Source: Desulfobacterales bacterium
GTDB taxonomy: Bacteria > Desulfobacterota > Desulfobulbia > Desulfobulbales > JAGXFP01
Reading direction: 5' to 3'
Length of the DNA stretch: 64,000 bases
NCBI GenBank assembly: GCA_024637225.1
Contig: JAGXFP010000050.1
Coordinates: forward strand, 11,905 to 75,904
Shown here piece after piece: positions 38 through 14,557 of the stretch; within the stretch, counting starts at the first letter, position 1, and each line of letters begins with the position of its first letter. Below the pieces are notes generated by a model. It saw nothing but the letters and a program-made list of their open reading frames with translations, searched no databases and was not told where the DNA came from. Both the position numbers and the translations under genes were made by a program.

Positions 38-931
38 CTATTGGGCAGAAGTAAATATCTGGACGCGGCTGTTTCCGCGGTCTGCGATAAATAAATCACC
101 GCCGGGGTTGATACACAACTGGCCTGGATAATAGAATTGGGCATTTTTCCAGCCGTATCCGAATCTATGTCCCAGGAAAGATCCGTCCTGATTCAAAAGG
201 ACGAGACTGCCCCCATGCTTATCGATCAGGTAAATAGTGCCCCTTCCGTCTACAGCTATATTGGTCGGAAAATTCGCGTACTCGCCGAGTTCCGAGGCCA
301 GCGCCGTGAACCGGTCTTCACCAGGTGCGGCGGCATACAAGGCAACTTCGGTACTGTCCACCAGAAAGACGTTGCCCTGCCGGTCAACGGCGAGGTCGGA
401 AAAGAACCCCGCCTCCTCCGGCACCGGAATATGCCTGAGGTAACTGCCTTCGGCATCGAGAATAAGCACGACTCCCTCTGAGATATCAAGTATGTGGATT
501 GTGTCATTCCGATCGATCTTGAAGCTTCTCGGTATCATTTTCCGGGAAACCGGAGAACCTTTCGGAGCAAGATATCCCTGGTCCGAACCATCGGCGTTGA
601 TGATCACGATTCGCCTGTCTCCGTCAAGGGCGTAGATTACCCCTTTGGAGTTTATCTGCACTATAATCGGAGAATTAACGGGCATTTCGGGAGCCGCCGG
701 TTTCGCGACCCCGTCACTGAAGGTATATTTTACCAGCCGGTTGTTTCCTGTATCGGCAACGACAAAATAATCATCGGTGCAACCCACTCCTTCCGGATGT
801 TTCAGACCGGTACCCTCAACCCCGTCATAGACGGACTGGGCGAAATTTATTTGTAAGGAATCCGCGGCAAAGGCAGCCGGCCCGGCGGAAATTGCATAGG
901 ACAATACTATGAACAGGGCTGATATCCGCAT
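38..931 (-). CDS. Secreted NHL-repeat six-bladed beta-propeller protein (297 aa)
   Basis: I trimmed ORF 38..1153 to Met75, which begins MRISALFIVLSYAISAGPAAFA (signal peptide). This start lies 7 nt after the stop of the upstream cytochrome gene. NHL-type blades are visible (FVVADTGNNRLVKY, IYLIDKHGGSLVLL, LFIADRGNSRVQIF). Confidence 0.75.
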   Translation of the reverse strand: MRISALFIVLSYAISAGPAAFAADSLQINFAQSVYDGVEGTGLKHPEGVGCTDDYFVVADTGNNRLVKYTFSDGVAKPAAPEMPVNSPIIVQINSKGVIYALDGDRRIVIINADGSDQGYLAPKGSPVSRKMIPRSFKIDRNDTIHILDISEGVVLILDAEGSYLRHIPVPEEAGFFSDLAVDRQGNVFLVDSTEVALYAAAPGEDRFTALASELGEYANFPTNIAVDGRGTIYLIDKHGGSLVLLNQDGSFLGHRFGYGWKNAQFYYPGQLCINPGGDLFIADRGNSRVQIFTSAQ

Positions 932-938
932 TATATTA

Positions 939-2210
939 TTACCTCCGAAAAGTGGCATGACATTGAATACATAACTCATTGGCAGTCGAGAAATGAAGGA
1001 AATGGGTGTTCTCGGTTCCATGGGTTCGATGGCAGCTCGTGCATTCGACGCTGCGATTTTTATTGCGCGGATCAGCAAATTCATCACCGATGGGATGGGT
1101 GGTATGACCTCGCCAGTCATGACAATCTCCACACAAATTCCTTTGCGAATCATCCTTCAGCATGAATTGATAATCAGAGCTATGGGGTAAATGGCATTCA
1201 CCGCAATCTCCTTCCGCGATGGGCGGATGCTCGGTTACCGATCTCTCCTGTCTCGCCAATGTGTCGGCATGACACGCGCCGCACACCGCCAGCATGGTTC
1301 CCCGCATAAGTTTTTTCTCCGGCGAGGCGTGGGGGGTGTGACAGTTCATGCAGTTTTTATCGTCAGCCAGGGGCCAGTGCAGATGGGACTTGTTCAGGGT
1401 ATCGTTGATCATTTCATAATGACAGGCCATGCAGGTTTCATATCCCGACGCCTTGAGGGCAAAAGGCTCGGTAGAGCCGGGGGCTACATGACACTGGCCA
1501 CAACTGCCCTTGGCAACCGGATCATGGACGTTATCGTACAGCATTGCCCCCTGGTTCGATCCATGCGGGTCATGACAGGTAGTGCAATCGGCCTTGCCCA
1601 CCGGGTAACCCTTGTGAATTGTCTGGAAGGCCTCCCCGTCCGTTTCGTGGCATTGCAGACAGAGCGCGGGGGTCGCCTCATTGAGAAGTTTGATATTGTC
1701 CGCGGAAGCATGGGCGCCGTGGCAATCGAGACAATTTTCCCTGACCGGGGGGTGGCTGAATTTGTTATTTTCAATTTTGTCGCCAAGTTCCCGGTGACAT
1801 TCAAAACAGAGCTCCTCGCCCTTTTTCAGCAGATTGGAGCGGTTTTGCGAGGCGTGGGGATCATGGCATAAGGTACATTGCCCTTCACCCACGACTTTGT
1901 GGATACTTCGCGCCTCATCCGGGATAAGGTCGCCGTGGCAGGTATAGCATATGGTCTCCTGGGGCGAGGCCATCATCATTTCAAAGTTCGAGGCATGGGG
2001 GTTATGACAGCCGACACACTCGCCATCCGCCAACGGTGTGTGGACGGAGGACTTTTTCATTGCTTCCCGCACCCCGTCGTGACAGCCCAGACAGAGTTTA
2101 CCGCCGGCGCCTTCCTTCAATTTAAAATCAGCCCGCGCATAACAGAGCGCGGGCAGGAAGATGGCGACAGCAACAAGTAATAGAACAGGCTTAGCATTTC
2201 GAAATTTCAT
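939..2210 (-). CDS. Multiheme c-type cytochrome with 16 CXXCH motifs (423 aa)
   Basis: I counted 16 CXXCH motifs. N-terminal signal peptide MKFRNAKPVLLLVAVAIFLPALCYA. Repeated CxxCHxPH(A/G/S)S units match the 'doubled CXXCH' architecture. Confidence 0.9.
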   Translation of the reverse strand: MKFRNAKPVLLLVAVAIFLPALCYARADFKLKEGAGGKLCLGCHDGVREAMKKSSVHTPLADGECVGCHNPHASNFEMMMASPQETICYTCHGDLIPDEARSIHKVVGEGQCTLCHDPHASQNRSNLLKKGEELCFECHRELGDKIENNKFSHPPVRENCLDCHGAHASADNIKLLNEATPALCLQCHETDGEAFQTIHKGYPVGKADCTTCHDPHGSNQGAMLYDNVHDPVAKGSCGQCHVAPGSTEPFALKASGYETCMACHYEMINDTLNKSHLHWPLADDKNCMNCHTPHASPEKKLMRGTMLAVCGACHADTLARQERSVTEHPPIAEGDCGECHLPHSSDYQFMLKDDSQRNLCGDCHDWRGHTTHPIGDEFADPRNKNRSVECTSCHRTHGTENTHFLHFSTANELCIQCHATFRR

Positions 2211-2225
2211 ATAGATTACCTTCCC

Positions 2226-4211
2226 TTACTTCTGTTCAACGATATGGCAGGGATCACACGTTCTCGCGGCAAAAGGTCCATGGAGCTTCTGCTTGAAAAA
2301 TTTCGCATCCTGTGAAGTATGCGGCGTGTGACAATTTACGCAATTAATTACCGCGGGGTCGATGTCAAGATGGGCGTCCTTGAAGCTGTCGCGGTCATAA
2401 TCATGGCATTGGCTGCAGAGATCATGAAGCGGCTGGCTCATCAGCATTGCCGCGTCATCGGAGTAATGCGGCTGATGACAGCGCAGACAATCCCTGGCTG
2501 CCGGCGGATGAATTCTTTCGGTAGCCATTTTATCCTGGATGTCCTGGTGACAGTTAAGGCAAAGCTCGGGGCTTGGGGCCTTAAGCAGGGTTTCCAGCCC
2601 CGATTTATGTGGATCATGGCACTCGGTGCATTGGCCGTCCATCACCACCTGGTGCCTGCTTTCAGCGCTTTTCAGGCCATCCTCAAGGTAATCGTGACAG
2701 GAAAAACAAAGCGACTCCTGCTCAGCCACCAGCATCCCCTTCATATCGCTGGCATGGGGGTCGTGGCAGGTGAGGCAGTCGTCATCCGCAAAGGGAGAAT
2801 GGACATTTTCCCCCGACTCCTTTTTCATTAACGGCTCATGGCATTGCTCACAGAGCTTGTTTCCCCTTTCCTTGAGGAATTTTTTATCGGCGGAGCCGTG
2901 GCCGCTGTGGCAGGCGATGCAGTTGCCCTTCCGGACGGGATCATGAATATTTTTTTTCTGATATTTACTTTCCAGATCCATGTGGCATGAATAACAGACC
3001 TCATCCCCCCTTTTAACCATAAGGTTTGGCAGGTTCGCGCCGTGGGGATTGTGACAGGTTGCGCAATCCGCATCAGCATACGGAGGATGTTGATTTTTCA
3101 GTTTTTTACCCGCGGCCTCGGTCCCGGCGTGGCAGCTGAAACACAACTGATCGACCGCCATGCCGAGCTGGGCCTGATGGGAGCCTGAATGCGCGGCATG
3201 GCAGGATAGACAGCCATCTTCACCCTGCAGGGGTTCATGGGGGAATCTGACGTTTTTCCCGGGATCCTGATGACAGGTAAAGCAGAGAGAATTACCGCCG
3301 GCAACAAGGAGATGCTGCTGATCAGATGTGTGGACATCGTGGCAGGAGAGACATTCACCGCTTTTAAATGGTTCATGCTCGACATCGCCGCCTGCCATCA
3401 AATCGGCTTTATCGTGACAGAAAAAACAGAGCTCCTCGCCTTCCGCCTGAACGGCAAATGGCTTGGCGCCGGAGGGTGATTCGTGGCAGTCTCCGCAAGA
3501 TGCCGATCCAACCGGTTCATGGATGCTGGCTTTCATCAGATTTTTCCGCATTGAGGAGTGCGGCGCGTGACAGCTGTTACAGTCCTCTTTCTCAACGGGA
3601 TATTCACCGTGGGCTTTTTTGAATTTGCCGGCATCACTGTCATGGCAGGAAAGGCAGAGTTCGGGGGCCGTACTGCTGAGCAGATTTTTTTCAGGGGCGG
3701 CATGAACGCTGTGGCAACTCAGGCAGCCATCGTCCTTGATCACCCGGTGTACGACTTTACGATTGTATTCTTCCTCGTCGTGACAGGCAAAACAGACCGA
3801 ATTGCCTTCTGACGCCAGGAGATACGGATCATCGGAGGCATGGGGGTTGTGACAGGAAATACATTCCCCCCTTCTCACCGCGGTATGGACATTCTCCTGG
3901 TTCAGCTTGAGATCCTCAACCTTATGACAGGTATAACAGAGGTTATTCCCATCTTCTTTAAGGATGAGTTTCGCGACTACGCCATGCCGGAGATGACACT
4001 CTTCGCATTTTTCTTCCGCGACCACCTTATGGACGTTCTTCATGGAAAGATACTTTTTGCTGAAATCCGTATGACAGTCCACGCAGCCTTTTTTGGTGAA
4101 TTTCCTTCTCGCGGCCTCGGAATCTTCACTGAAAGCCAAGGCGATCAGGCAGCAGGCGATAACAGCCGCTCCTAAAACGGATAGTTTGCGTTTAAGATTA
4201 TTATTCAACAT
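2226..4211 (-). CDS. Multiheme c-type cytochrome with 26 CXXCH motifs (661 aa)
   Basis: I counted 26 CXXCH motifs, arranged as 13 pairs of about 50 aa each. The hydrophobic N-terminus LSVLGAAVIACCLIALAF is a signal peptide or possible lipobox VIAC. It ends 15 nt upstream of the 16-heme gene. Confidence 0.9.
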   Translation of the reverse strand: MLNNNLKRKLSVLGAAVIACCLIALAFSEDSEAARRKFTKKGCVDCHTDFSKKYLSMKNVHKVVAEEKCEECHLRHGVVAKLILKEDGNNLCYTCHKVEDLKLNQENVHTAVRRGECISCHNPHASDDPYLLASEGNSVCFACHDEEEYNRKVVHRVIKDDGCLSCHSVHAAPEKNLLSSTAPELCLSCHDSDAGKFKKAHGEYPVEKEDCNSCHAPHSSMRKNLMKASIHEPVGSASCGDCHESPSGAKPFAVQAEGEELCFFCHDKADLMAGGDVEHEPFKSGECLSCHDVHTSDQQHLLVAGGNSLCFTCHQDPGKNVRFPHEPLQGEDGCLSCHAAHSGSHQAQLGMAVDQLCFSCHAGTEAAGKKLKNQHPPYADADCATCHNPHGANLPNLMVKRGDEVCYSCHMDLESKYQKKNIHDPVRKGNCIACHSGHGSADKKFLKERGNKLCEQCHEPLMKKESGENVHSPFADDDCLTCHDPHASDMKGMLVAEQESLCFSCHDYLEDGLKSAESRHQVVMDGQCTECHDPHKSGLETLLKAPSPELCLNCHQDIQDKMATERIHPPAARDCLRCHQPHYSDDAAMLMSQPLHDLCSQCHDYDRDSFKDAHLDIDPAVINCVNCHTPHTSQDAKFFKQKLHGPFAARTCDPCHIVEQK

Positions 4212-4391: not shown

Positions 4392-6161
4392 TCACTTACC
4401 GGTATCCGTCAGAAGAATCCTGACGGGATATACTTCCTTGAGCTTCAAGATCCATTCGTCAAGCACCTCTTCGCTTTTCAGACTGAAAACTTTCTTGAGC
4501 ACTTCATCCCTGGCCTCTTCATAGGGCTGCGCTTCCGGCGGATAGACATCGGTCATCAAAAGTACGTAATAAAATTCGCCGTCGGCTGGAGCGTATAGAA
4601 GGGAGTCGCCCTTTTTGACGTCATGGGCGAGCTCTTGCAGATCTTCCGGCAGGGCTGCCAGGCTCAAGAGCTTCTTGTCCAGGGGCAATACTCCATTCGT
4701 GTCCGGGTCGACCAGATTGACGGCATTAGCCGAAATCCAGTTGAAATCGGCTCCCTTGCGCAGTCTGGACAGAGCGAGCTCCGCGTCCGGCCGATTATGG
4801 AGGACCAGGCTTTTTATCCGCAGCATGGTCGAAGAGGAATATTCATCGATATGCTTATCGTAATAGGCGCGGATTTCTTCTTCGGTGACTTCCACCTCGG
4901 GCAGAACGAGCTTGTTCATGAATGTATTGAAGATGACCGATCTTTCAAACTCCTCTACCTTCCTTTTGAAACCTTCCGTCTGGTCAAGACCGAGGCGACG
5001 CGCCTCATAATCGCTGGTGTATCTGAAAATCTTGTTCGCAAGGATTTTCTCTTTGCGGTCATTGACCATTTTCAATTTAGCGGCCTTATCCGCCCCGTGA
5101 TAAAAAGTGCCTTTAAGTTCGGCTGCAAGTTCTGCGACGGTATAGACGAACGGATCAGCATCTCCCTTGGCCTGGGCGAGAATACGCTTGTCCTGGACCA
5201 GTAATTCCAGGTCATTATCAAAATCAAGCTGTTCGTATAATTCTTTATCGACCTTGACATATTTTTCCTGCAGGGCAGCCCCGTATTCCAGAGCCTTCTT
5301 CTTTTGCAGGTTCTCATGAACCCTGCGGTAGGCCTCGTCCCTGGCGGATTGATCCTCGACAAAACGTGTATCGACCAGCCGATACAGGAGGTTGCCTTCC
5401 TCGGTGCGATAAATTTTGCTGTGAGCCCCGGCCTTCATTGCATGCACTTCCTGGGCAATCTCGGATCGCAAGTCCTTTATCTTCACATAGTCATCGTTTT
5501 TCTGTTCCGTTAATTTGCCTTCCTCGATATAGCGTTCGACAACCTGTTCGAAATCGCCATCCTTGATTTCCTCGAGAAACATCCGGGCGGTCGGACCTTC
5601 CGGAAAAAGAAGGGAGTAAAGCTTCACTTCCCGGGATATGTCTCGATACATCTCGTCAACCAGGGCCGAATCAGGCTCAAGGCCCCGAAGATGCTGATTC
5701 ATCAGTTCCTGCCGCAACAGACTCTGCTTGAAATCCTCAATCTGGCTCTTCACATCACCTCTTTCATCCAGGCCGATGTTTATTGCTTCCCGAAAAACAA
5801 GTCTTGCATTTATCAAGCGGTTCAAGACCTGCAGATACTCCTTTTGCCGTTCTTCGGGATCGTCGCTCAACTGCTTATCCTGCCGGGCAAGGGCTTTGGC
5901 CAGCTCATCCTTGGTAACCGCTTCATCATCATCGATCATCGCCACCGGTGTATCGTCGAAAGGCAGTGAAAAAAACGGGGTGGCGAGCTTTTTGAATTTT
6001 TCCGAAGCGGGCTCGGGCATCTGGTTGCCATCGGTTTCAGCGTTGGCTTTGGGCTGGGAATCCTCTCCTCGGGACTCATGGGGATAAAACGGCTGTAAAA
6101 GAATGGCGCCGCAAAAAATGGAAATGCATAGGAAACGATGTATCATTGGATTCACTCTCAT
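4392..6161 (-). CDS. Periplasmic SurA/PpiD-like chaperone with a parvulin-like domain (589 aa)
   Basis: Has an N-terminal signal or anchor sequence and a long helical chaperone-like region. The C-terminal segment (LRIKSLVLHNRPDAELALSRLRKGADF...) looks like a PpiC/parvulin fold, but I cannot see the usual GG(D/E)LG-type motif. Confidence 0.5.
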   Translation of the reverse strand: MRVNPMIHRFLCISIFCGAILLQPFYPHESRGEDSQPKANAETDGNQMPEPASEKFKKLATPFFSLPFDDTPVAMIDDDEAVTKDELAKALARQDKQLSDDPEERQKEYLQVLNRLINARLVFREAINIGLDERGDVKSQIEDFKQSLLRQELMNQHLRGLEPDSALVDEMYRDISREVKLYSLLFPEGPTARMFLEEIKDGDFEQVVERYIEEGKLTEQKNDDYVKIKDLRSEIAQEVHAMKAGAHSKIYRTEEGNLLYRLVDTRFVEDQSARDEAYRRVHENLQKKKALEYGAALQEKYVKVDKELYEQLDFDNDLELLVQDKRILAQAKGDADPFVYTVAELAAELKGTFYHGADKAAKLKMVNDRKEKILANKIFRYTSDYEARRLGLDQTEGFKRKVEEFERSVIFNTFMNKLVLPEVEVTEEEIRAYYDKHIDEYSSSTMLRIKSLVLHNRPDAELALSRLRKGADFNWISANAVNLVDPDTNGVLPLDKKLLSLAALPEDLQELAHDVKKGDSLLYAPADGEFYYVLLMTDVYPPEAQPYEEARDEVLKKVFSLKSEEVLDEWILKLKEVYPVRILLTDTGK

Positions 6162-6319: not shown

Positions 6320-7567
6320 TTAGCTCCGGGAAGGATTGACCAGCAACCGCACGGTGGCTCTGGACAACTTCCTTAATAAATTGTGCGCGGTATATTCTCT
6401 GCCTAAATCAAAGAAGTAAACCCCATCCGTACCCCTGCGGAAGGCCCTGGCCCCAAAAACGATTTGTCTGCTTTTTTTTTCGATGATCTGCATGGAAAAA
6501 TCCACCTTGGGTTCCCGAGAGGCGCCTTGATAGTCAAAAACTCTGCCCGTCAGCACCAGGTCGGCACCTAATAAATATTCCCCGGTAATCAGATCCGTTT
6601 CCGCAAGTGATGGACCCTGTGGCATATTCGCCCGGATTTTGAGGAGTCCCTCTCTGACCATACCGGGCTCAAACACATCAAAATCAGTCATATTGACCAG
6701 CTCTCTGACGTAATGAAGCTGCGCGATAACCCCGGCATTCTTGCGTGGAGACAGATTGAGCATCGGGATGACAGCTATAGAGTATTGGCTGCCCGGATCA
6801 ACGAGGGGCGAGCGAAAATAATCATAGGGCATGTATTGCCTCTCAAACCATTGCCCCGGCGACAACAAGTTGCCAAGCCGCCCGCTCCTCGGTTGCGGCC
6901 TTGAAAGGTTCCGGCCGTCACCACCGGGAATCCCCGGAACGAAACCGGCCGCCAGAGAGTCGGTCAGCACCCCGACGACTTTTTTTATTAATTCGCTGGA
7001 TTTCCTGATCCGCTTCAGATCAAGAAACCCGGGGGATTCATCCCCCGACAGGCCGACACTGTCCATCCAGATGATTTCCGGACGCGATCCGGATGCAACA
7101 AGTCTTGTGATCAGGGAGATCAGCGGTGGCCCCGCCTCCTGGTATGCCTCCAGGGAGGTGATCAAAACAGCATCGACCCCGGTCTCCTCCAGCAGAGCTT
7201 CCGAAAGAGTTGAATTCACGCCGCCGGTATTGCGCATCCGGTGTTTTTTTCTGAATTGTTCAAGGCGGTTTTTGTCCAACACCCGAAAGCCTTTCTTGAC
7301 AAGCCCTGCGCCGATATAATTCTCGATCTCCTCCAGGGGGGCATTGGTGCCGCTGAGATTTTCAACAGGCAGGACAGCGATGAGAAAATCCCCAATGCCG
7401 GCCGGCCCGGGTTGACCAGTGGTTGCAACCTTTTGTGGTGTTGCCCCGTGTTCGGGAAGAACAGCAAATCCCTCTGTTTTATTGCGGGCGCACCCCCAGA
7501 GATTTGCCGCGAAGAGCACAGCGGTCAAGAGGACCGCTTTATTGAAAAAGCTTGTCGAGAAGCTCAT
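6320..7567 (-). CDS. Lipoprotein with two LpoB/DUF799-like modules (415 aa)
   Basis: I trimmed ORF 6320..7591 to MSFSTSFFNKAVLLTAVLFAANLWG|C (lipobox), which has GGAGAG 6 nt upstream. Two internal modules are present: FLIAVLPVENLSG... and YSIAVIPMLNLSP.... The gene overlaps the upstream gene by 29 nt. Confidence 0.6.
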   Translation of the reverse strand: MSFSTSFFNKAVLLTAVLFAANLWGCARNKTEGFAVLPEHGATPQKVATTGQPGPAGIGDFLIAVLPVENLSGTNAPLEEIENYIGAGLVKKGFRVLDKNRLEQFRKKHRMRNTGGVNSTLSEALLEETGVDAVLITSLEAYQEAGPPLISLITRLVASGSRPEIIWMDSVGLSGDESPGFLDLKRIRKSSELIKKVVGVLTDSLAAGFVPGIPGGDGRNLSRPQPRSGRLGNLLSPGQWFERQYMPYDYFRSPLVDPGSQYSIAVIPMLNLSPRKNAGVIAQLHYVRELVNMTDFDVFEPGMVREGLLKIRANMPQGPSLAETDLITGEYLLGADLVLTGRVFDYQGASREPKVDFSMQIIEKKSRQIVFGARAFRRGTDGVYFFDLGREYTAHNLLRKLSRATVRLLVNPSRS

Positions 7568-8120
7568 CAACACTCTCCAGGGTAATATCATTCATCGGTT
7601 CGCCGCCTCCGCCGAACATCCGATCTGTCAGGGTTATTCCTCCTTTAGTAGAAGAGGCGCTCCAGATGACGGTGCCGGTTTCGGTTTCGCTCATTTGCAG
7701 GCTCAGCGAAATGATATTGGCGGTGCTCGCCCCGGACCTCACCAGATTGTATTCCCGAACCACTCCGGTGATAATGACATCAACACCGAGGATATTGGCG
7801 AGACTCTTGATTTCATCTACCGAAGGGGCCGAGGGATCAACCATGCTTACCCTCCTGATGGCACGATGCACTTCTCCCGGGGGCAGGACATAGAACGCTC
7901 CGGTGGCAAGCAGCATACTGGTGAAAACATCGCGCACCCTTTCCGCGGCATCCTGTTCGTTGGTCAAATTCGCGAAAGGCAGAACCGCGGCGGTTTCTAT
8001 GGCGGCGAAATCAACCATTTCATTATAATAAACCCCTTTCTCCCTGTTGGCGCATCCCCCCAGAAAAACGAGTTGTACACCGACAAGAAGTGCAATGAGC
8101 CCATGTATTTTCCCCTTCAT
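7539..8120 (-). CDS. DUF799/GNA1162-like lipoprotein (193 aa)
   Basis: Lipobox LVFLGG|C. The module AAVLPFANLTNEQDAAERVRDVFTSMLLATGAFYVLPPGEV...GVDVIITGVVREY is typical of the LpoB/DUF799/CsgG-N fold family. The family name is from memory. Confidence 0.55.
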   Translation of the reverse strand: MKGKIHGLIALLVGVQLVFLGGCANREKGVYYNEMVDFAAIETAAVLPFANLTNEQDAAERVRDVFTSMLLATGAFYVLPPGEVHRAIRRVSMVDPSAPSVDEIKSLANILGVDVIITGVVREYNLVRSGASTANIISLSLQMSETETGTVIWSASSTKGGITLTDRMFGGGGEPMNDITLESVDELLDKLFQ

Positions 8121-8144: not shown

Positions 8145-10364
8145 TTAATAAAAAATCCTGAGGCGAGCCCTGAAACTGTCGAAATCTCTTAATTCCCTGA
8201 TGGTTTCGCGAGTGCCGGTATTATATCCCAGGTCCAGGGATATTCCCGGCCCGACCTTCCAGGTCAGGCTGGGAGATATGCTCTTGGTAGAACTGTCCGC
8301 CTCCTCTGCCTGGCTATAACTGATCCTGAAACGCAAATCGCCATCCGGGAAAGGTGACCAGTTCACATTAAAATCCCTGCTGGAGGTGGAAGAATCGATT
8401 ATTCCTTCCTGCTCCCTGAAATTATAACTCGTAAAAGCACTCACAGTCTCTGTAACGCTCCACAGAAGCTGAGCTCTTCCTGACTGGGTCCTCCCGTCAA
8501 CCCTGTCGTCTTGTTCAACCCAGCTTGAGGAGTAGTTAAAATTTGCAACCAGCTTTGAATTAGGTCGTATATTCGTCGCCAGGGTAAGTGACTTGACGGT
8601 CTGTTCAACTCCGTTCAGCAGGGTGTTAAGCGAGTAACGCAGATCAAGATTCATGCTCAAGCCGGTATAAAAGCCGGCATTGGTCCGCAGGGTAAGCGAT
8701 TTGGAATCGGTGTCGCCCCTGGATTTTTTACTGTTAAACCCGGAGAAGATCAGCGACTGGCTGAGCTTTTCAAAGTAGTCTCCCTTGACGGCAAGACTGT
8801 ACGAATGATCCGTGTCATGCTCTTCACCCTGGGGAGAGCTTCTGATCCGATCCGTACGATTGACTCTGCCGTAGGTTGAAAATATCGGACTGAGGACATG
8901 ACGGAAATTAATTCCGTTGATCCATGAGCTGTTTTTCGAATCCCCGGGATCCGATTCCTGCTCACCGTAGGAAACATGATAATTAAAAATCGTTTTTTCA
9001 ACCGGGACCCAGCCGAGTTTAAAAGAATAATTCTGGGAAAGAGCTTCCGTTTCCCGACTGTCGCCGCTGACGCCTAGGATGGTAAAGGCTCTGATGTTAT
9101 TATAACGAATTTCGCCGGGTGCAAGGGTCAAAGGGGTGGTAGTCACCTTGACGCGACGGGCGTCGACTGCCGAGACCAGACGTATTTCAAAACGATGCTC
9201 GATAATGTTATAGGTGACCGAAGAGATCGAGCGCTCCGTCCAATCCAGTTCCAGCGGGTCAACAGTTTGATCATCATTACTGTAGAACTGCCAGGCCAGG
9301 GAACCGGCAATTTCCGCAATCTGGCTGGGAGAGAGCAGATCGGGGAAGTTTTCAGTATCATCGCTGAGTTGTATGTAGATCGTCGCCACTTCGGTGGAAT
9401 TATCGAAACCAAGACCGACGCTGACCGGATTGATGCCGCCATCCCTGCCGATATTGATGTCGGTTAACGGGTTGCCGGCGCCCACCTCGATCACTTCAAA
9501 GGGATCATTGCCGGTCGGCAGTGAATCATCAAATATATAAAACGGAGTGCCCAGTTCGGCAGCCGGAATATCGACAGTGCTGCCGGGACGGCTGAACTGT
9601 GCGTTTCTCTGGACAATCCGCGCGGATGCATTCACGTTGAATCGATCTTCCTTGTAAGTAAATGCCTTGGCGTAATCAACCTTGCCGTTATGGCTTCTGG
9701 ACCGGATTTCGGAGTCGTCCAGGTGGTTATAAGTATCGTTGCCGCTGAATCCATACTGAAACCGGTATCCCCGGTACTTGTACCTCGTATTGAGACTTAA
9801 CGTATCCCCGGTCGAATCGGCGGTCAAAGGATCATCCCGCAGTTCGGTCCGCCGGAAATTGAGATTAACCGGCGGAAGATCGACCGGATTCCAGTTAAAA
9901 CTCCCATGATATTGATCGATCATGATTTTTCTCGTCTCTCCGGAGTTCAGGTCCGTTTCCACGTCCCTGCTCCGGTAACCCAGATTCAGCCCGTAAAAAG
10001 GATCAGTCAGCCTGACATTCACATAGGGACTGATCGAAGTCTCCGATCTATCCGATTCCGCCCCGGCGAGGTCTGAATCGATAATCCGGCTGGTTGCGTC
10101 TTCATTCTCATAGCTGGTGCCAAGCCCAAGCTTAAGGTTCGGATAGATTCGCCTCGTTAAATCAAAATGATAGCGCTGGGTCAACCGGGAGCTCTCCGAT
10201 TCGGAAACATTTCCGGTGGTCTTTCCGGTAGTCTCGGAATCGGACGAAAAATATCTCAGATCAGCCGTAAGCGAGATCCCGTCCGCATGCAGAATATCGG
10301 GCAACAAAAGCAGCAGCAATGCCGCGGCTGTCGAAATTATGCTGGGAACAGACCGGGCAGACAT
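8145..10364 (-). CDS. Predicted large outer-membrane beta-barrel protein (739 aa)
   Basis: Signal peptide MSARSVPSIISTAAALLLLLLPDILHA. Alternating hydrophobic/polar strand pattern rich in Y, S, T, N, D and G throughout. C-terminal ...FRARLRIFY ends in the aromatic residue typical of BAM substrates. Confidence 0.6.
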   Translation of the reverse strand: MSARSVPSIISTAAALLLLLLPDILHADGISLTADLRYFSSDSETTGKTTGNVSESESSRLTQRYHFDLTRRIYPNLKLGLGTSYENEDATSRIIDSDLAGAESDRSETSISPYVNVRLTDPFYGLNLGYRSRDVETDLNSGETRKIMIDQYHGSFNWNPVDLPPVNLNFRRTELRDDPLTADSTGDTLSLNTRYKYRGYRFQYGFSGNDTYNHLDDSEIRSRSHNGKVDYAKAFTYKEDRFNVNASARIVQRNAQFSRPGSTVDIPAAELGTPFYIFDDSLPTGNDPFEVIEVGAGNPLTDINIGRDGGINPVSVGLGFDNSTEVATIYIQLSDDTENFPDLLSPSQIAEIAGSLAWQFYSNDDQTVDPLELDWTERSISSVTYNIIEHRFEIRLVSAVDARRVKVTTTPLTLAPGEIRYNNIRAFTILGVSGDSRETEALSQNYSFKLGWVPVEKTIFNYHVSYGEQESDPGDSKNSSWINGINFRHVLSPIFSTYGRVNRTDRIRSSPQGEEHDTDHSYSLAVKGDYFEKLSQSLIFSGFNSKKSRGDTDSKSLTLRTNAGFYTGLSMNLDLRYSLNTLLNGVEQTVKSLTLATNIRPNSKLVANFNYSSSWVEQDDRVDGRTQSGRAQLLWSVTETVSAFTSYNFREQEGIIDSSTSSRDFNVNWSPFPDGDLRFRISYSQAEEADSSTKSISPSLTWKVGPGISLDLGYNTGTRETIRELRDFDSFRARLRIFY

Positions 10365-10368
10365 CGCT

Positions 10369-11787
10369 CTAGAATTTACCCATCACAACCAGGGCATGCC
10401 CACCCTCTTCCGTCTCCATCTCCGCCAGTTTTCTCTTGCTGACCAGATTAAACTTATAGACCATATTCCCGTCAGCCGTCAGAATCAGGAGCACATTTTC
10501 TTCCCCGTCAATGGCTATGAAATCTGTTCCCTGACCTGCCCGGAAGCTGTCGATAAACACTTCCGTTAACGGATCGACGACAATAATTTCTCCTGTTTTT
10601 TTGCCGATATAGACATAATTGCCCTGGGGAGCCGCCTGCACCGAAGCGCCCTCGCCGCCGATAAATATTCTTCTGGTTACCTGAAGAGACCGGGTGTCCA
10701 GAACCAGCAGATCGGTTGAATATTCGGCGAGGATAAACAGGCTGTCGCCATCCCTGCTCAATACACCTCGGACAGGAGATTCATCAAGTGGGACGGAAGC
10801 CAGCAAGCTCCCCCCGACCAGATCAATAATGGAAATCGTGTTTGCCATTGTATGCAGGACATAGGCTGTTGTGCCATTTGCTCCAGCCACAATCCATGCC
10901 GGCTCGGGATCAAGCACCAACCGTGCGGTTTCGGAGAGGGAACCGGTATCGATAATGCTGACCGTGCCGGAACCGTAATTGGCTGAAAGAAGGGTCCTGC
11001 CGTCGGGGGTAAGGGTAAGCTCGGAAGGTTTATCGCCGAATTCCAATCTGATCGTGCCTGTTATCTCCAGGGTCGCGATGTTGATGACTTCGATGATGTC
11101 GTCGCCGGCGGCAGCGACATATACTATGCCGTTCGGCTCGTCGAGGGCCATGCCCTTCGGCTCGATGCCGGTATGAATAACCTGGACAACCTCCATAACA
11201 TTCTTGTTGAAAACCGTGACGATATTGTCGTTGGAATTGCTGACAAAACCCAGATGATTCAAGGGCGGCATCGAAGTTTTCCCCAGAGCGAATCGCGGCG
11301 TAAAACGTTCACCGTCGGTGACGAGGAACTCAGATGAGAGCTCAATAAAAAGGGCAAGCGATTCGCCGCGGTGAATGGAAAAGTTGAAATCGAGGACCAG
11401 AGGTTCGGCCGGCGGCATGAGTTCCATGCCGCCATTTTCGGTGACCATGCCCGCCTGCTCGATGGCAAGGGAAATCCCGCTGTACCTCCCAGCGGGAAGC
11501 GGCGTCGCGCTCAGCCGCTTCTGCATATCGGTTGCCTCTTGTCCGCTGATGATCATCCTGGCCGGCAGTACGCTGAGCAGCTCGTCACCCTCCTCGGGAA
11601 TAACGGAAATATTCCCGATGGTAAAACTCAACGACTGCATCTCCTGGGGCAAGGGCTGAAGATAAAGATACAGTTCCCCCAGTTCGCCCAGCGGCTCCTT
11701 GAGTACGGTTATTGTCTTGGGAGTGCTGCATCCACAGACAAGAACCGTGATCATCAGAAAAAAAATAGAGCGTACGATTATCAGCAT
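10369..11787 (-). CDS. Lipoprotein with an N-terminal Ig-like (DUF4382-like) domain and a YVTN-type beta-propeller (472 aa)
   Basis: Lipobox VLVCG|CS. Repeats of the YVTN type are present (IVYVAAAGDDIIEVINIATLE, LLSANYGSGTVSIIDTGSL, AYVLHTMANTISIIDL, LFILAEYSTDLLVLDTRSL). Its stop lies 4 nt before the barrel gene start. Confidence 0.7.
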   Translation of the reverse strand: MLIIVRSIFFLMITVLVCGCSTPKTITVLKEPLGELGELYLYLQPLPQEMQSLSFTIGNISVIPEEGDELLSVLPARMIISGQEATDMQKRLSATPLPAGRYSGISLAIEQAGMVTENGGMELMPPAEPLVLDFNFSIHRGESLALFIELSSEFLVTDGERFTPRFALGKTSMPPLNHLGFVSNSNDNIVTVFNKNVMEVVQVIHTGIEPKGMALDEPNGIVYVAAAGDDIIEVINIATLEITGTIRLEFGDKPSELTLTPDGRTLLSANYGSGTVSIIDTGSLSETARLVLDPEPAWIVAGANGTTAYVLHTMANTISIIDLVGGSLLASVPLDESPVRGVLSRDGDSLFILAEYSTDLLVLDTRSLQVTRRIFIGGEGASVQAAPQGNYVYIGKKTGEIIVVDPLTEVFIDSFRAGQGTDFIAIDGEENVLLILTADGNMVYKFNLVSKRKLAEMETEEGGHALVVMGKF

Positions 11788-11814: not shown

Positions 11815-12996
11815 TCACGCGCCATGGCACTTCTCGCAAAACTGTCCCTGCCCGGGACCGAACTCGATCGAAATATCCCGGTTGTAATAACTGTACAGCA
11901 CGTCATTGCCCGAGACGCCGCCGTCACCCGGACCGGGATGGGATTCCGCCAGCAAAGCAGCATCAAAGTCCCATCTCCCCGCCGATCTGAAAGCCGAGCC
12001 ATGGGCGCGATGACAGGAAAGACACATGACTTTCGAGTTTGCATCGGGACCCTGGGTGCTGGTCGGGTCCAGCAATTGCGGATCGCCTGTTCCGCGTTCA
12101 AAAGGGACGAACTGCAGATAAGCGGTGCCGGCAATCCCCGTGCCCGTGCCGTTTGCCAGCAGGTCCCCGGTATTGATATAGGCGTTATACATGGAGATCG
12201 TTTCAATACTGAGCATTGCGTTGTTGCCGGCGGGGTGCACAAAACTCCCGGCGCCCAGGTGGCTATCCTGCAAAATGGCGCCGTGGCAGTTCCCGCACCA
12301 CTCACTCATTCCGGTACCGTAATCCACGTGGGATTCATCCGTTTCCCCGAATTTCCCGAGGATATTCTGCCTCGCCACCGGGGCGTCATAGGAAAATCGA
12401 TACCCCACGGCCGCGCTCCCTCCCTCGTAACGCGAATCACCCAGCAGCCTGTAGTTGCCGGTTACCCCTCCCCCCCCAGGCAGTTCGCCGTAGGAGCCGG
12501 AGACCGTTAACGGCAGGGCGCCGAGCCGGGTGCCGCCTCCTTTTTTCGCGTGAGGATCATGGCAGCTTATGCAGCTAAGATTTTCGGACGGGTAATTGCC
12601 TCCCGGCGATTCAACCAGACGCTGATCCCGGGTCAAGCCGAAATCAAGGGCAACGACATTATGGCCATGGCTTTCACCCCTGCTTTCACCCCCGCTCCAG
12701 GTGAAGGTCTTGTTAAGCCAGTAAAAATCCCCGCCGGGAGTCATGGCGGAACCGTCGGCACTGAATACCGAGGGGCTGTTCGCCCCACCCGTTCCGGAAT
12801 GGCAGTTCAGGCAGACCGAACTGGGGTCGGATCCCAGCAGCAGTGGCCCCCATTCATTTGCGTTATGCATGGAGTGGCAGCCGTTGCACTCCATCACCCC
12901 GCCGTTGTGAAATGAACGGACCGTACCGACATTGACGAGGAACACCCCGAGAAAAAATGCCGCGGTTGCCGCTATATGAACAGATTTAGGTGTCAT
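11815..12996 (-). CDS. Secreted hexaheme c-type cytochrome (393 aa)
   Basis: Six CXXCH motifs (CNGCH, CLNCH, CISCH, CGNCH, CLSCH, CEKCH). Signal peptide MTPKSVHIAATAAFFLGVFLVNVG. The heme sites are separated by long Gly/Ser-rich non-heme stretches. Confidence 0.85.
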   Translation of the reverse strand: MTPKSVHIAATAAFFLGVFLVNVGTVRSFHNGGVMECNGCHSMHNANEWGPLLLGSDPSSVCLNCHSGTGGANSPSVFSADGSAMTPGGDFYWLNKTFTWSGGESRGESHGHNVVALDFGLTRDQRLVESPGGNYPSENLSCISCHDPHAKKGGGTRLGALPLTVSGSYGELPGGGGVTGNYRLLGDSRYEGGSAAVGYRFSYDAPVARQNILGKFGETDESHVDYGTGMSEWCGNCHGAILQDSHLGAGSFVHPAGNNAMLSIETISMYNAYINTGDLLANGTGTGIAGTAYLQFVPFERGTGDPQLLDPTSTQGPDANSKVMCLSCHRAHGSAFRSAGRWDFDAALLAESHPGPGDGGVSGNDVLYSYYNRDISIEFGPGQGQFCEKCHGA

Positions 12997-13014: not shown

Positions 13015-14001
13015 TCACTCCCCAACGATCCTGAAGACACTGACTCCCTTCCTCCCACCCTGGGCTATATAAAGAAGTCTCTTCTCATTATTTATGGCGA
13101 GATCGTCCGGGACGATCAGGCTGGAGTCTCGAAAACCCCGAAAGCCGAACTCGGTCAGGAAATTAAAAGAGCTGTCGAAAATCAGCACCACTGAGCGGAG
13201 CCGATCGGTAATATAGATATTCCCCTCGCGGTCGGTGACGATTCCGGCGATAACGCCGAACTTGCCTTTCGCGCCGCCGGATACGCCGAACATCTTGATC
13301 GTACCGTCCATCTGTCGCTTGAAGGTGGTAAACAAAAGAGGCACTGTGAAGAAAATATTTCCTTCCCGGTCGACATAAAATCCGAAAATAGTCATCGATT
13401 CCGGGTCAGCGAACTCGTCTCGACCGGGGCTGTTCTGGAAGGTATCTTTCAGTTCCAACAATTCCGCCTTGAGATGATATCCTTTCTGAAACCGGCCTCC
13501 GGTATCGATCACGACAAGATCCATGGAAGAAGCCTCGACCAGGTAGAGCAGGCCATCGATATACTGCACAAGGGATGGGCTAAACGGTTGAAAATCGGTG
13601 GGGAAATTTTGCAGGCTGATGGCGGGTTGGGGCTCGCCTTTATAATCGAGGCGCAGAATTTCACTAAATCCCTCCCTCCTCGGATATACCAGGTAAATAT
13701 CCCCCTCTGCGCCGATATCAAAATCCGAGGCGCCGGAAAGGGCGACATCATCACCCAATGTGAAAACCTCCATGCCGCGGCTATTGAAGATCCGCATAGT
13801 GTTATCCCGCGGATTAAGGGTAAAGGCCTCCGTTTGATCTTCATCCACGGCAACCCGGGAAAAGAGCGACGGTATAACTCCTTCAAAATCGGCCAGGCGA
13901 TGTAGGAAAACGACCTCAATGCCGCTTGCCTGGCTCGCGCCGAAAATCAGCAGGAAAATCGAAACAAGAAAACTGTAGGTGAGAAAAGATTTTTTCATCA
14001 T
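13015..14001 (-). CDS. Secreted NHL-repeat beta-propeller protein, first gene of the operon (328 aa)
   Basis: I trimmed ORF 13015..14067 to MMKKSFLTYSFLVSIFLLIFGASQASG (signal peptide). NHL-like blades are present (IYITDRLRSVVLIFD, LLYIAQGGRKGVSVFRI). An AT-rich region of about 350 bp lies upstream. Confidence 0.65.
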   Translation of the reverse strand: MMKKSFLTYSFLVSIFLLIFGASQASGIEVVFLHRLADFEGVIPSLFSRVAVDEDQTEAFTLNPRDNTMRIFNSRGMEVFTLGDDVALSGASDFDIGAEGDIYLVYPRREGFSEILRLDYKGEPQPAISLQNFPTDFQPFSPSLVQYIDGLLYLVEASSMDLVVIDTGGRFQKGYHLKAELLELKDTFQNSPGRDEFADPESMTIFGFYVDREGNIFFTVPLLFTTFKRQMDGTIKMFGVSGGAKGKFGVIAGIVTDREGNIYITDRLRSVVLIFDSSFNFLTEFGFRGFRDSSLIVPDDLAINNEKRLLYIAQGGRKGVSVFRIVGE

Positions 14002-14557
14002 GTTGTCTTTAAGTAAGCAAAAAAAGGACGCTTTTCTAAAAGTATCCATTTTATTTTCAAATACCACCGGACCAGCTTGATATTTTTCAAAATAGTTACC
14101 AACAACAAGCTGGCCCCCTGCCCAGGATAACTATTCAAGATTACTTACAAAATTAAAATTTTCGCTTTTATTGCAACCCCAGAATACTTCCTTCCTCATC
14201 CTCCGGTACTACCCCTGAATTATATTTTATAATATGAGCGATGTAAGAAACAACAGGTTGTTTTTCCGGCAGTAATATAGTTCGATTAGATAATGGGAAA
14301 AGGGTCATTTATGGAGGAGCAGGGAGTAATTGCAGATATTAAAATAGCTCATGCTATCAGCCAAGAGCTCTCTGGGCGCCGGGGATTGGGGGCATTTGGA
14401 CGACAACACGGATTACACAGACAGAATTGGCAAAAAGGCATGGGCTGGAGTTTTTCTTAGAGTTGATAATGAATATTGTAAAATTGGTTCCGGCGATTTC
14501 TCCTGGGGCTCGAGAGTTATTTATAGATTAAAAATATCTGGCCGGCTGCCACTGTTT

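Follow-up and report, generated by a model that had tools for sequence, protein, structure and literature searches.

The closest known relatives of the protein considered here are outer-membrane barrels encoded in the oet and osc cytochrome clusters. One is OetI, described by Murali et al. 2023 (PMC10553843) from the Oet conduit of syntrophic sulfate reducers; Skennerton et al. 2017 (PMC5539420) were the first to note its cluster, oet. OscE belongs to the osc (omcS-companion) cluster of G. sulfurreducens (Shen et al. 2025, Cell Chem Biol 32:239, as cited in PMC13194489 and PMC12977616). In PMC13194489, OscE, OscF and OscG are proposed to act in secretion of OmcS, OscH in folding and OscD in morphology, and Shen et al. 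(2025) are credited with the genetic evidence that ties OscEFG to the secretion of OmcS in G. sulfurreducens. The block GSU2500-GSU2493 has been described as a 'nanowire secretion' block (PMC12977616), while a preprint (10.1101/2025.10.22.684050) refers to a 'porin-like pathway'; the route of cytochrome filaments across the outer membrane, and the way in which they attach to it, is still called an open question (PMC12307469).

The barrel gene, its operon and its family

In the window, i.e. the whole 64,000-nucleotide stretch of Desulfobacterales DNA analysed here, a barrel gene occupies positions 8145..10364 of the minus strand, on which all other features given below also lie, and encodes 739 aa plus a stop codon from an ATG start. 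Its N-terminus (MSARSVPSIISTAAALLLLLLPDILHA, followed by DG) was read from the sequence as a signal peptide of aa 1-27 (10284..10364) with predicted cleavage after LHA; A27 is invariant across 22 homologues, and in an AlphaFold2 model residues 5-19 form a low-confidence helix, with the first predicted strand from residue 29. The C-terminus, ...ARLRIFY, resembles a beta-signal, and an aromatic F/Y ends 169 of 213 members of the family (last residue F in 125, Y in 44 and L in 29). The gene lies 4 nt from the preceding YVTN gene (TAG-AGCG-ATG) and 24 nt, including a GGGAGA Shine-Dalgarno-like site, from the next lipoprotein gene. In all these respects (the reading frame, signal peptide, terminal LRIFY, both spacers and the central place of the gene in a cytochrome operon) our results agree with the preliminary description of this DNA.

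The operon is headed by an NHL/beta-propeller protein (13015..14067), whose true start is probably internal, followed by an OmcS-like hexaheme cytochrome (11815..12996; 6 CxxCH) in the OscC/GSU2501 position, which matches OmcS (PDB 6EF8) over its full length at E 4.4e-64 and keeps the mature OmcS N-terminus, FHxGGVxECxGCHxMH. A YVTN beta-propeller lipoprotein of 472 aa in the OscD position (10369..11787) then immediately precedes the barrel gene. On the other side of the barrel come a 193-aa PelC/GNA1162/LpoB-like lipoprotein in the OscF position (7539..8120) and, overlapping its gene by 53 nt, a 423-aa lipoprotein in the OscG position (6320..7591). These are followed by a SurA/PpiC-type peptidyl-prolyl isomerase (PPIase) in the OscH position (4392..6161; Pfam Rotamase_2, E 5.6e-18), a 26-heme cytochrome in the OscI/GSU2495 position (2226..4211; 26 CxxCH), a 16-heme cytochrome in the OscJ/GSU2494 position (939..2210; 16 CxxCH) and, at the tail of the operon, an NHL-repeat six-bladed propeller assigned by Pfam (NHL, E 5.6e-14) and synteny (38..934). 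A promoter and terminator scan gave counts not above shuffled expectation; the sole suggestive site, at 14247-14219 and ahead of the first gene, was a match to -35/-10 elements.

This arrangement closely follows the osc cluster of G. sulfurreducens, in which OscE holds the same position in the block, together with the hexaheme gene oscC/GSU2501, an OscD of nearly identical length (473 aa, PMC13194489, versus 472 aa here), the two lipoproteins OscF and OscG, the PPIase OscH, the 26-heme oscI/GSU2495 and the 16-heme oscJ/GSU2494. It differs in that the window has only the GSU2501-type hexaheme and no omcS/omcT pair upstream, and in that the barrel sequence is highly divergent. The oet cluster and the window have four core genes in common (the 16-heme and 26-heme cytochromes, the PPIase and the six-bladed propeller), whereas the oet clusters of SEEP-SRB also encode two further cytochromes, one periplasmic and ExtA-like and the other an 'omc' lipoprotein (OetA, OetB), both of which are missing from the window.

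A profile search recovered 898 representative relatives of the barrel, nearly all of them full-length proteins of 700-770 aa. Among these, MBN2332760.1 (P0025 in our set) aligns with the target over its full length at 38% identity (E 4e-170) and figures among the leaves of the published OetI tree, beside sequences from G. sulfurreducens and Desulfurivibrio; that tree also holds sequences from Desulfobulbaceae. OetI and the target thus belong to one protein family. A more distant homologue from Geotalea uraniireducens (BDV42816.1; 25% identity, E 9e-46) lies in the same gene block on its contig. The order NHL, OmcS-like 6-heme, YVTN, barrel, two lipoproteins, PPIase, 26-heme, 16-heme and NHL is kept in 13 loci, including loci labelled Desulfobulbaceae, Syntrophorhabdus, Gemmatimonadota and Acidobacteriota. 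Within this cassette the barrel is the fastest-evolving gene, with identities of 23-28% as opposed to 47-56% for the small lipoprotein.

Given the relative in the OetI tree at 38% identity, the shared osc/oet neighbourhood and the Geotalea copy in the same block, the protein is, as judged from sequence and gene order, an orthologue of OscE/OetI, the barrel of the osc/oet nanowire cluster. Its equation with GSU2499 is by gene order, together with the presence of WP_010943136.1 of G. sulfurreducens in the OetI tree; GSU2499 was not among the matches to the Geotalea protein or to a 25-sequence family profile. Because the OscE/OetI family has already been described, the protein adds one more instance of a known machine and does not represent a new type. 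The earlier remark that it lacked an obvious family signature therefore stands as far as the databases are concerned, but not as to its identity. Searches of Pfam and NCBIfam returned no significant family (best, OMP_b-brl at E 0.08), PDB sequences gave no match, and ten diverse members of the family likewise matched no barrel family in Pfam or NCBIfam. With no Pfam or NCBIfam model for the 898 representatives, genome pipelines annotate the family as 'hypothetical protein'.

Predicted architecture of the barrel and its loop 6 insert

The AlphaFold2 model of the protein (mean pLDDT 80.4) supports the earlier view of it as a barrel candidate, predicting a very large transmembrane barrel of 28 strands (DSSP) arranged as 11 + 17 around an inserted domain. 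Strands beta1-beta11 span aa 28-257 (9594..10283) and beta12-beta28 span aa 438-739 (8148..9053). Across 213 homologous sequences, loop-length variability alternates as a 28-strand register with an external insert predicts (SD 1.44 versus 0.50, p 1e-4). By idealised geometry, such a barrel would have a C-alpha diameter of about 50 A, from which we infer a free lumen of roughly 35-40 A if it is round and unplugged.

Foldseek matches to the model were dominated by TonB-dependent receptors, with E-values down to 1e-9, but at TM-scores of only 0.20-0.26, which marks them as generic barrel similarity. Receptors of that class have a 22-strand barrel with an N-terminal plug; the protein matches neither TonB_dep_Rec nor Plug in Pfam, and its strand 1 follows directly on the signal peptide, so that it has no plug. 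Nor did Pfam, NCBIfam or Foldseek assign it with confidence to some other transporter family without ties to cytochromes, an outcome that the preliminary description had raised.

The amphipathic strands do not run throughout the protein as previously described, since about a quarter of it, residues ~258-437 (9054..9593), forms a soluble discoidin/CBM32-like (galactose-binding-like) domain. This insert of 180 residues lies between beta11 and beta12, which the model and the loop alternation place in extracellular loop L6. The Pfam models F5_F8_type_C and F5_F8_type_C_2 (PF00754 / PF22633) match 15 and 17, respectively, of 38 family inserts (E<=0.01; best E 1e-5). The target's own insert matches neither, and the whole-protein discoidin matches of the ten family members checked were all under the gathering score. 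Profile matches of the insert to PDB are nonetheless headed by CBM32 and F5/8 type C domains. A separate model of the domain (pLDDT 78.8) found almost exclusively galactose-binding-like folds among its best 50 Foldseek matches (probability ~1.0, TM 0.4-0.55), including CBM32, the BgaA CBM, chitobiase F5/8-C, galactose oxidase, APC10/DOC, BIRC6 and DDR1. The insert is thus predicted to have the jelly-roll fold of the galactose-binding-like superfamily.

The two lipoproteins encoded directly downstream of the barrel carry three PelC-like modules between them. PelC is the lipoprotein of the Pel export pore that assembles into a ring beneath the outer-membrane barrel. The 193-aa protein matches the GNA1162-like Pfam family (E 3e-6) and, in PDB, PelC itself (9h80_C at E 2.4e-4, as well as 5t11 and 5t10). 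The 423-aa protein holds two such modules, which align with the 193-aa protein in BLASTP at aa 259-387 (E 2e-11) and aa 72-151 (E 0.038).

These lipoproteins, together with the carbohydrate-binding-module fold of the insert, would also suit an export pore of the PelB-PelC type (PDB 9H80, 5T11) for an exopolysaccharide or other non-cytochrome product. In that case the CBM-like loop would bind the exported glycan, and what is exported would serve as a matrix holding the cytochromes. The UniRef label of the Geotalea homologue, PEP-CTERM-associated outer-membrane protein, points the same way, but the corresponding model, TIGR03016, is matched neither by the target (E<=0.1) nor by ten diverse members of the family (E<=0.01). 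Furthermore, Pfam and NCBIfam reveal no glycosyltransferase, polymerase or other polysaccharide gene in the operon, the barrel lacks a PelB-like TPR part, and an OmcS-like gene is found within ~5 kb upstream of the barrel in all 11 sampled genomes. We therefore regard such a pore as very improbable. The system also differs from Pel in that its barrel is unrelated to PelB, in that its three PelC-like modules are spread over two proteins where Pel has one, and in its cargo, presumably a cytochrome and not a polysaccharide.

Secretion, anchoring or electron conduit

Two partners accompany the barrel throughout the sample, namely the OmcS-like hexaheme and, directly downstream in 10 of 10 informative genomes (11 sampled), a PelC-like lipoprotein gene. 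The constancy of these partners argues less for an MtrB-type sheath than for a channel by which an OmcS-like filament is secreted or anchored, and such a channel is probably what the OscE/OetI protein described here provides. In the periplasm beneath the barrel, the two lipoproteins would contribute their three PelC-like modules to a ring or funnel. The PPIase chaperone would bring the OmcS-like hexaheme, whose gene lies two places upstream of that of the barrel, and this folded, heme-loaded 40 kDa subunit would cross the outer membrane via the barrel, or else the barrel would hold the filament at its base. The discoidin-like domain, on the outside of the cell, may cap, gate or dock the emerging filament. 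The fold, family membership, gene order and identities of the neighbours used here come from this analysis and the link of OscEFG to OmcS from the literature; from these we infer that the filament passes through the barrel or is anchored by it, that the lipoproteins form a ring, and what the insert does.

The ushers FimD and PapC offer a working analogy only, one also drawn in the preprint 10.1101/2025.10.22.684050, in that they combine a large barrel, a beta-sandwich domain inserted mid-barrel and a periplasmic chaperone with ATP-independent polymerisation at the outer membrane. In contrast to ushers, the target matches no Usher HMM and has its insert in an extracellular loop and not in a periplasmic turn, and the chaperone of the system is a PPIase, not an Ig-fold protein.

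The main alternative to such a channel is the one proposed in the OetI model, to which the comparison with MtrB in the preliminary description also points, i.e. that the barrel is the MtrB-like sheath of a porin-cytochrome conduit, which insulates a heme wire and secretes nothing, with the 16- or 26-heme cytochrome threading the barrel and passing electrons to an extracellular cytochrome. Like the target, MtrB (Shewanella MtrCAB; PDB 6R2Q chain B) is a very large outer-membrane barrel from a multiheme cytochrome operon, and it gave the best TM-score among PDB chains (6r2q_B; TM 0.42/0.47, rmsd 14 A, 8% identity), a level that is generic for large barrels. The large lumen of a 28-strand barrel would suit a conduit, and OetI was named as the porin of one by Murali et al. 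2023 (PMC10553843). Moreover, a DmsE-family decaheme model, TIGR03508, scores the 26- and 16-heme proteins above its cut-off (305 and 196 bits versus 192), as expected of DmsE/MtrA-family cytochromes.

Against a sheath of this kind, the target matches MtrB_PioB in neither Pfam nor NCBIfam (E<=0.1), and the absence of an MtrB-like N-terminal CxxC, already remarked on in the preliminary description, is complete, there being no cysteine anywhere in the 739 aa. MtrB also has 26 strands where 28 are predicted here, and the target differs from it in the discoidin-like loop domain. The immediate neighbours of the barrel are a propeller lipoprotein and PelC-like lipoproteins, in place of the MtrA-/MtrC-type decahemes that accompany MtrB, and neither PelC-like lipoproteins nor such a PPIase are known from Mtr or Pcc systems. 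The only cytochromes in the window are the 6-, 16- and 26-heme proteins; an OetB/MtrC-type lipoprotein cytochrome of the outer surface and an ExtA-like periplasmic partner are both missing from it. The barrel is tightly flanked by the OmcS-like gene and the genes of the PelC-like lipoproteins, whereas the large cytochromes lie 3-4 genes away, beyond two spacers of 158 and 180 nt.

Co-occurrence is largely uninformative in choosing between secretion and conduit, because the 26-heme gene is linked to the barrel too. Of the sampled genomes, all 9 informative ones have the 26- and 16-heme genes on the barrel's contig, an arrangement that would suit a conduit just as well, and only one complete chromosome (5.57 Mb) has the six-gene barrel module with no 26-heme homologue at E<=1e-20, which counts against one. 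On this evidence we consider a simple MtrB-like sheath possible but unlikely.

Both functions could also reside in one barrel, which would then be a pore and an electrical feed-through, i.e. a secretion usher and a porin-cytochrome conduit combined, although we think this rather doubtful. OmcS-like subunits would be exported and polymerised on the barrel in the manner of an usher, with the extracellular discoidin-like L6 domain clamping the base of the filament. Twelve PelC-like modules, e.g. from four copies each of the one- and two-module lipoproteins, would form the periplasmic funnel, and the MtrA-like 26-heme wire would enter the same lumen from below and charge the filament. If true, this would be an architecture not known from any system.

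Taken as an OscE/OetI orthologue in a conserved cassette, the barrel yields statements about its family that can be tested: a 28-strand barrel, a conserved discoidin-like domain on loop 6, and three PelC-like modules in the partner lipoproteins. With this locus, a Desulfurivibrionaceae-type genome joins the carriers of a complete OmcS-nanowire assembly cassette. This is relevant to extracellular electron transfer in the sulfide-oxidising, iron-reducing Desulfobulbales, a metabolism in which Desulfurivibrio alkaliphilus strongly upregulates an OmcS-like cytochrome (PMC12545173).

An outer-membrane barrel of a known family

The minus-strand ORF at 8145-10364 starts with ATG and encodes 739 amino acids. 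Its N-terminus, MSARSVPSIISTAAALLLLLLPDILHA|DG, has the n-, h- and c-region layout of a signal peptide; A27 does not vary across 22 homologues, and the first barrel strand of the AlphaFold2 model is predicted from residue 29. The C-terminus reads ...ARLRIFY, and the last residue is F in 125 and Y in 44 of 213 family members, which fits the expected outer-membrane beta-signal. The barrel ATG lies 4 nt from the stop of the YVTN lipoprotein gene, and the barrel stop lies 24 nt from the start of the next gene, ahead of which is a GGGAGA site. There is a single copy in the genome. The sequence bears out the preliminary description as to the ORF, signal peptide, LRIFY end and both spacers, and also the lack of an MtrB-like CxxC, as cysteine is absent from the protein altogether. 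The lack of an obvious family signature held too, with no significant match to the barrel in Pfam, NCBIfam or the PDB sequence library.

The reading of the gene as a large barrel in a cytochrome operon stands, but the family is already published (OetI/OscE), known though uncurated. Four core genes were described by Skennerton et al. (2017, PMC5539420), encoding 16-heme and 26-heme proteins, a PPIase and a six-bladed propeller, with two copies of the cluster in Desulfurivibrio alkaliphilus. The barrel was named OetI, porin of a proposed conduit, by Murali et al. (2023, PMC10553843), whose OetI tree includes MBN2332760.1 (38% identical to our protein, E 4e-170) along with Desulfurivibrio, Desulfobulbaceae and G. 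sulfurreducens sequences. In the osc (omcS-companion) cluster of G. sulfurreducens, oscC is GSU2501, oscI GSU2495 and oscJ GSU2494, and OscD has 473 aa (PMC13194489); by gene order our protein corresponds to OscE (GSU2499), and that account assigns OscE/F/G to secretion and OscH to folding. G. uraniireducens is listed among carriers of the GSU2500-GSU2493 'nanowire secretion' block (PMC12977616). Our protein is 25% identical to the family member of this species (E 9e-46), and precisely this block is found on a contig encoding a protein 99% identical to that member.

A word-based search returned 23 relatives, the closest 92% identical, and those with a named source were Desulfurivibrionaceae, Desulfobulbaceae or Desulfobacterales MAG proteins. 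Searching 1.84 billion representatives with a profile yielded 898 proteins at E<=1e-3, 371 of them at E<=1e-30, and almost all sequences are 700-770 aa long and align end to end. The distribution is patchy, with matches in 25 of 401 sampled genomes of the phylum and in none of the 13 same-order genomes of that sample; labels on related loci are Gemmatimonadota, Acidobacteriota and Syntrophorhabdus. In two MAG loci (L008:6608-8699 and L013:9995-12185) the frame is broken in two by a frameshift or assembly error. Seven genomes of one genus (family f23, genus g25; G019, G061, G098, G131, G193, G253, G281) carry 755-783-aa open frames in which only the first ~330 positions of the barrel profile are matched (E 1e-24 to 1e-28); they may belong to a sister family of large barrels that is more distantly related.

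Predicted fold and a discoidin-like insert

The AlphaFold2 model, built from a 22-sequence alignment, has a mean pLDDT of 80.4 and a pTM of 0.65, and its DSSP assignment gives 11 long strands over residues 29-257, then a separate domain at about 258-437 and lastly 17 further strands (438-738). A transmembrane barrel is thus predicted, as proposed, with 28 strands when residues 99-120 are counted as a single kinked 22-residue strand (strands of equal length exist elsewhere in the barrel), an even number, which any outer-membrane barrel needs. The register was checked against connection lengths in 213 family members: those assigned to the periplasmic side are almost constant and those outside are variable (mean SD 0.50 versus 1.44 residues, Mann-Whitney p 1e-4). 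For an idealised barrel with n = 28 the C-alpha diameter comes to 49-52 A, and the free lumen would be about 35-40 A, provided that the barrel is round and unplugged.

The separate domain follows strand 11 and is therefore part of extracellular loop 6. An insert of 164-208 residues is present in all 213 family members. Of 38 aligned inserts, 17 hit Pfam F5_F8_type_C_2 and 15 hit F5_F8_type_C with E<=0.01; every F5_F8 match from the ten whole family proteins examined falls under the gathering score, and the insert of our protein gives no direct Pfam F5_F8 match. Against the PDB, a profile of the insert alignment matches solely galactose-binding-like domains (YeCBM32, an F5/8 type C protein, hyaluronoglucosaminidase CBM32 and galactose oxidase; E 0.024-0.13). 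Modelled alone by AF2 from 12 sequences (the window and fetched loci), the insert reaches a pLDDT of 78.8 and in Foldseek comes closest to CBM32 modules, BgaA CBM, chitobiase F5/8-C, galactose oxidase, APC10/DOC, BIRC6 and DDR1 (E from 1.7e-4, probability about 1.0, TM 0.4-0.55). The insert is a discoidin/CBM32-like jelly-roll, so that the beta-strand periodicity described as running throughout the protein holds for residues 29-257 and 438-738 and gives way between them to another fold. Our protein and its two closest relatives carry a short additional segment within the insert, DQTVDPLE (aa 365-372, window 9240-9270), the sole region of the mature protein with pLDDT <50.

Operon partners and conserved gene order

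The minus-strand operon encodes, in order, an NHL propeller, a 6-heme cytochrome, the YVTN lipoprotein, the barrel, lipoproteins of 193 and 423 aa, a PpiC-type PPIase, 26-heme and 16-heme proteins and an NHL propeller. The barrel, gene 4 of 10, is central as described, with the 6-heme gene before it and the 26- and 16-heme genes after it, and these three are the only cytochrome genes within the 64-kb window. The 6-heme protein (11815-12996, minus strand) matches OmcS (PDB 6EF8) over its full length (E 4.4e-64) and keeps the mature OmcS N-terminus, FHxGGVxECxGCHxMH, including the equivalent of His16, the inter-subunit heme ligand of OmcS filaments; its sequence is consistent with an ability to polymerise.

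In the PDB the 193-aa lipoprotein hits PelC (9h80_C, E 2.4e-4, as well as 5t11 and 5t10), and in Pfam the GNA1162-like family. The 423-aa lipoprotein, whose gene overlaps the preceding one by 53 nt, contains two modules paralogous to the 193-aa protein (E 2e-11 and 0.038), giving three PelC-like modules in total (window 6320-8120). PelC is a 12-mer, so four copies of each lipoprotein would, speculatively, make twelve modules. That the barrel is itself a PelBC-like glycan exporter seems very improbable, since the operon lacks polysaccharide genes.

The same arrangement of genes is seen in 13 fetched loci, and in the distant ones the barrel is the most divergent cassette member (23-28% identity versus 47-56% for the small lipoprotein). 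Among 11 sampled genomes with strong barrel matches, an OmcS-like gene lies at most about 5 kb upstream in 11/11, a PelC-like lipoprotein directly downstream in 10/10 informative cases, and a 26-heme gene on the same contig in 9/9 informative cases. The complete 5.57-Mb chromosome CP070652 ('Deltaproteobacteria bacterium bin85') carries a minimal six-gene module (L010:6173-14051) of NHL propeller, OmcS-like hexaheme, YVTN lipoprotein, barrel and two PelC-like lipoproteins; PPIase, 26-heme and 16-heme genes were not found within 8 kb. Elsewhere, a transposase-like ORF (L004:14201-15232) lies directly behind the second lipoprotein gene, where the cluster is broken, and that genome has more distant 26-heme-like genes on a different contig. 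Another sampled genome has three tandem OmcS-like genes directly upstream of the barrel module (G380:C86:1514-5569) and further copies on a different contig.

Possible roles in filament secretion and as an electron conduit

One reading of the barrel is an MtrB-like sheath around one of the DmsE/MtrA-like 16- or 26-heme wires. The best TM-score match of the barrel model is MtrB, the 16- and 26-heme proteins score above the TIGR03508 cut-off, and the linkage of the large cytochromes to the barrel is constant. Nevertheless, the barrel matches no MtrB family model and lacks the CxxC, an MtrC/OetB-type partner is absent from the window, the large cytochromes sit more loosely in the operon, and a search at E<=1e-20 finds no 26-heme homologue in one genome with the barrel module (CP070652). 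We consider a sheath rather unlikely.

We lean instead, with some confidence, towards the barrel serving an OmcS-type filament machine as its channel or anchor in the outer membrane. The predicted fold, family, synteny and partner identities come from the present analysis, and the genetic link of the cluster to secretion from the literature (PMC13194489). In such a machine, the heme-loaded subunit would be handled in the periplasm by the PPIase, and PelC-like modules may build a funnel beneath the barrel, by analogy with PelC under PelB; we infer this lipoprotein ring, as we do subunit passage and the role of the insert. The 28-strand barrel would then pass the subunit, or grip the filament base, and the extracellular discoidin-like domain may cap, gate or dock the filament. 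Secretion and conduit roles of the barrel do not exclude each other.
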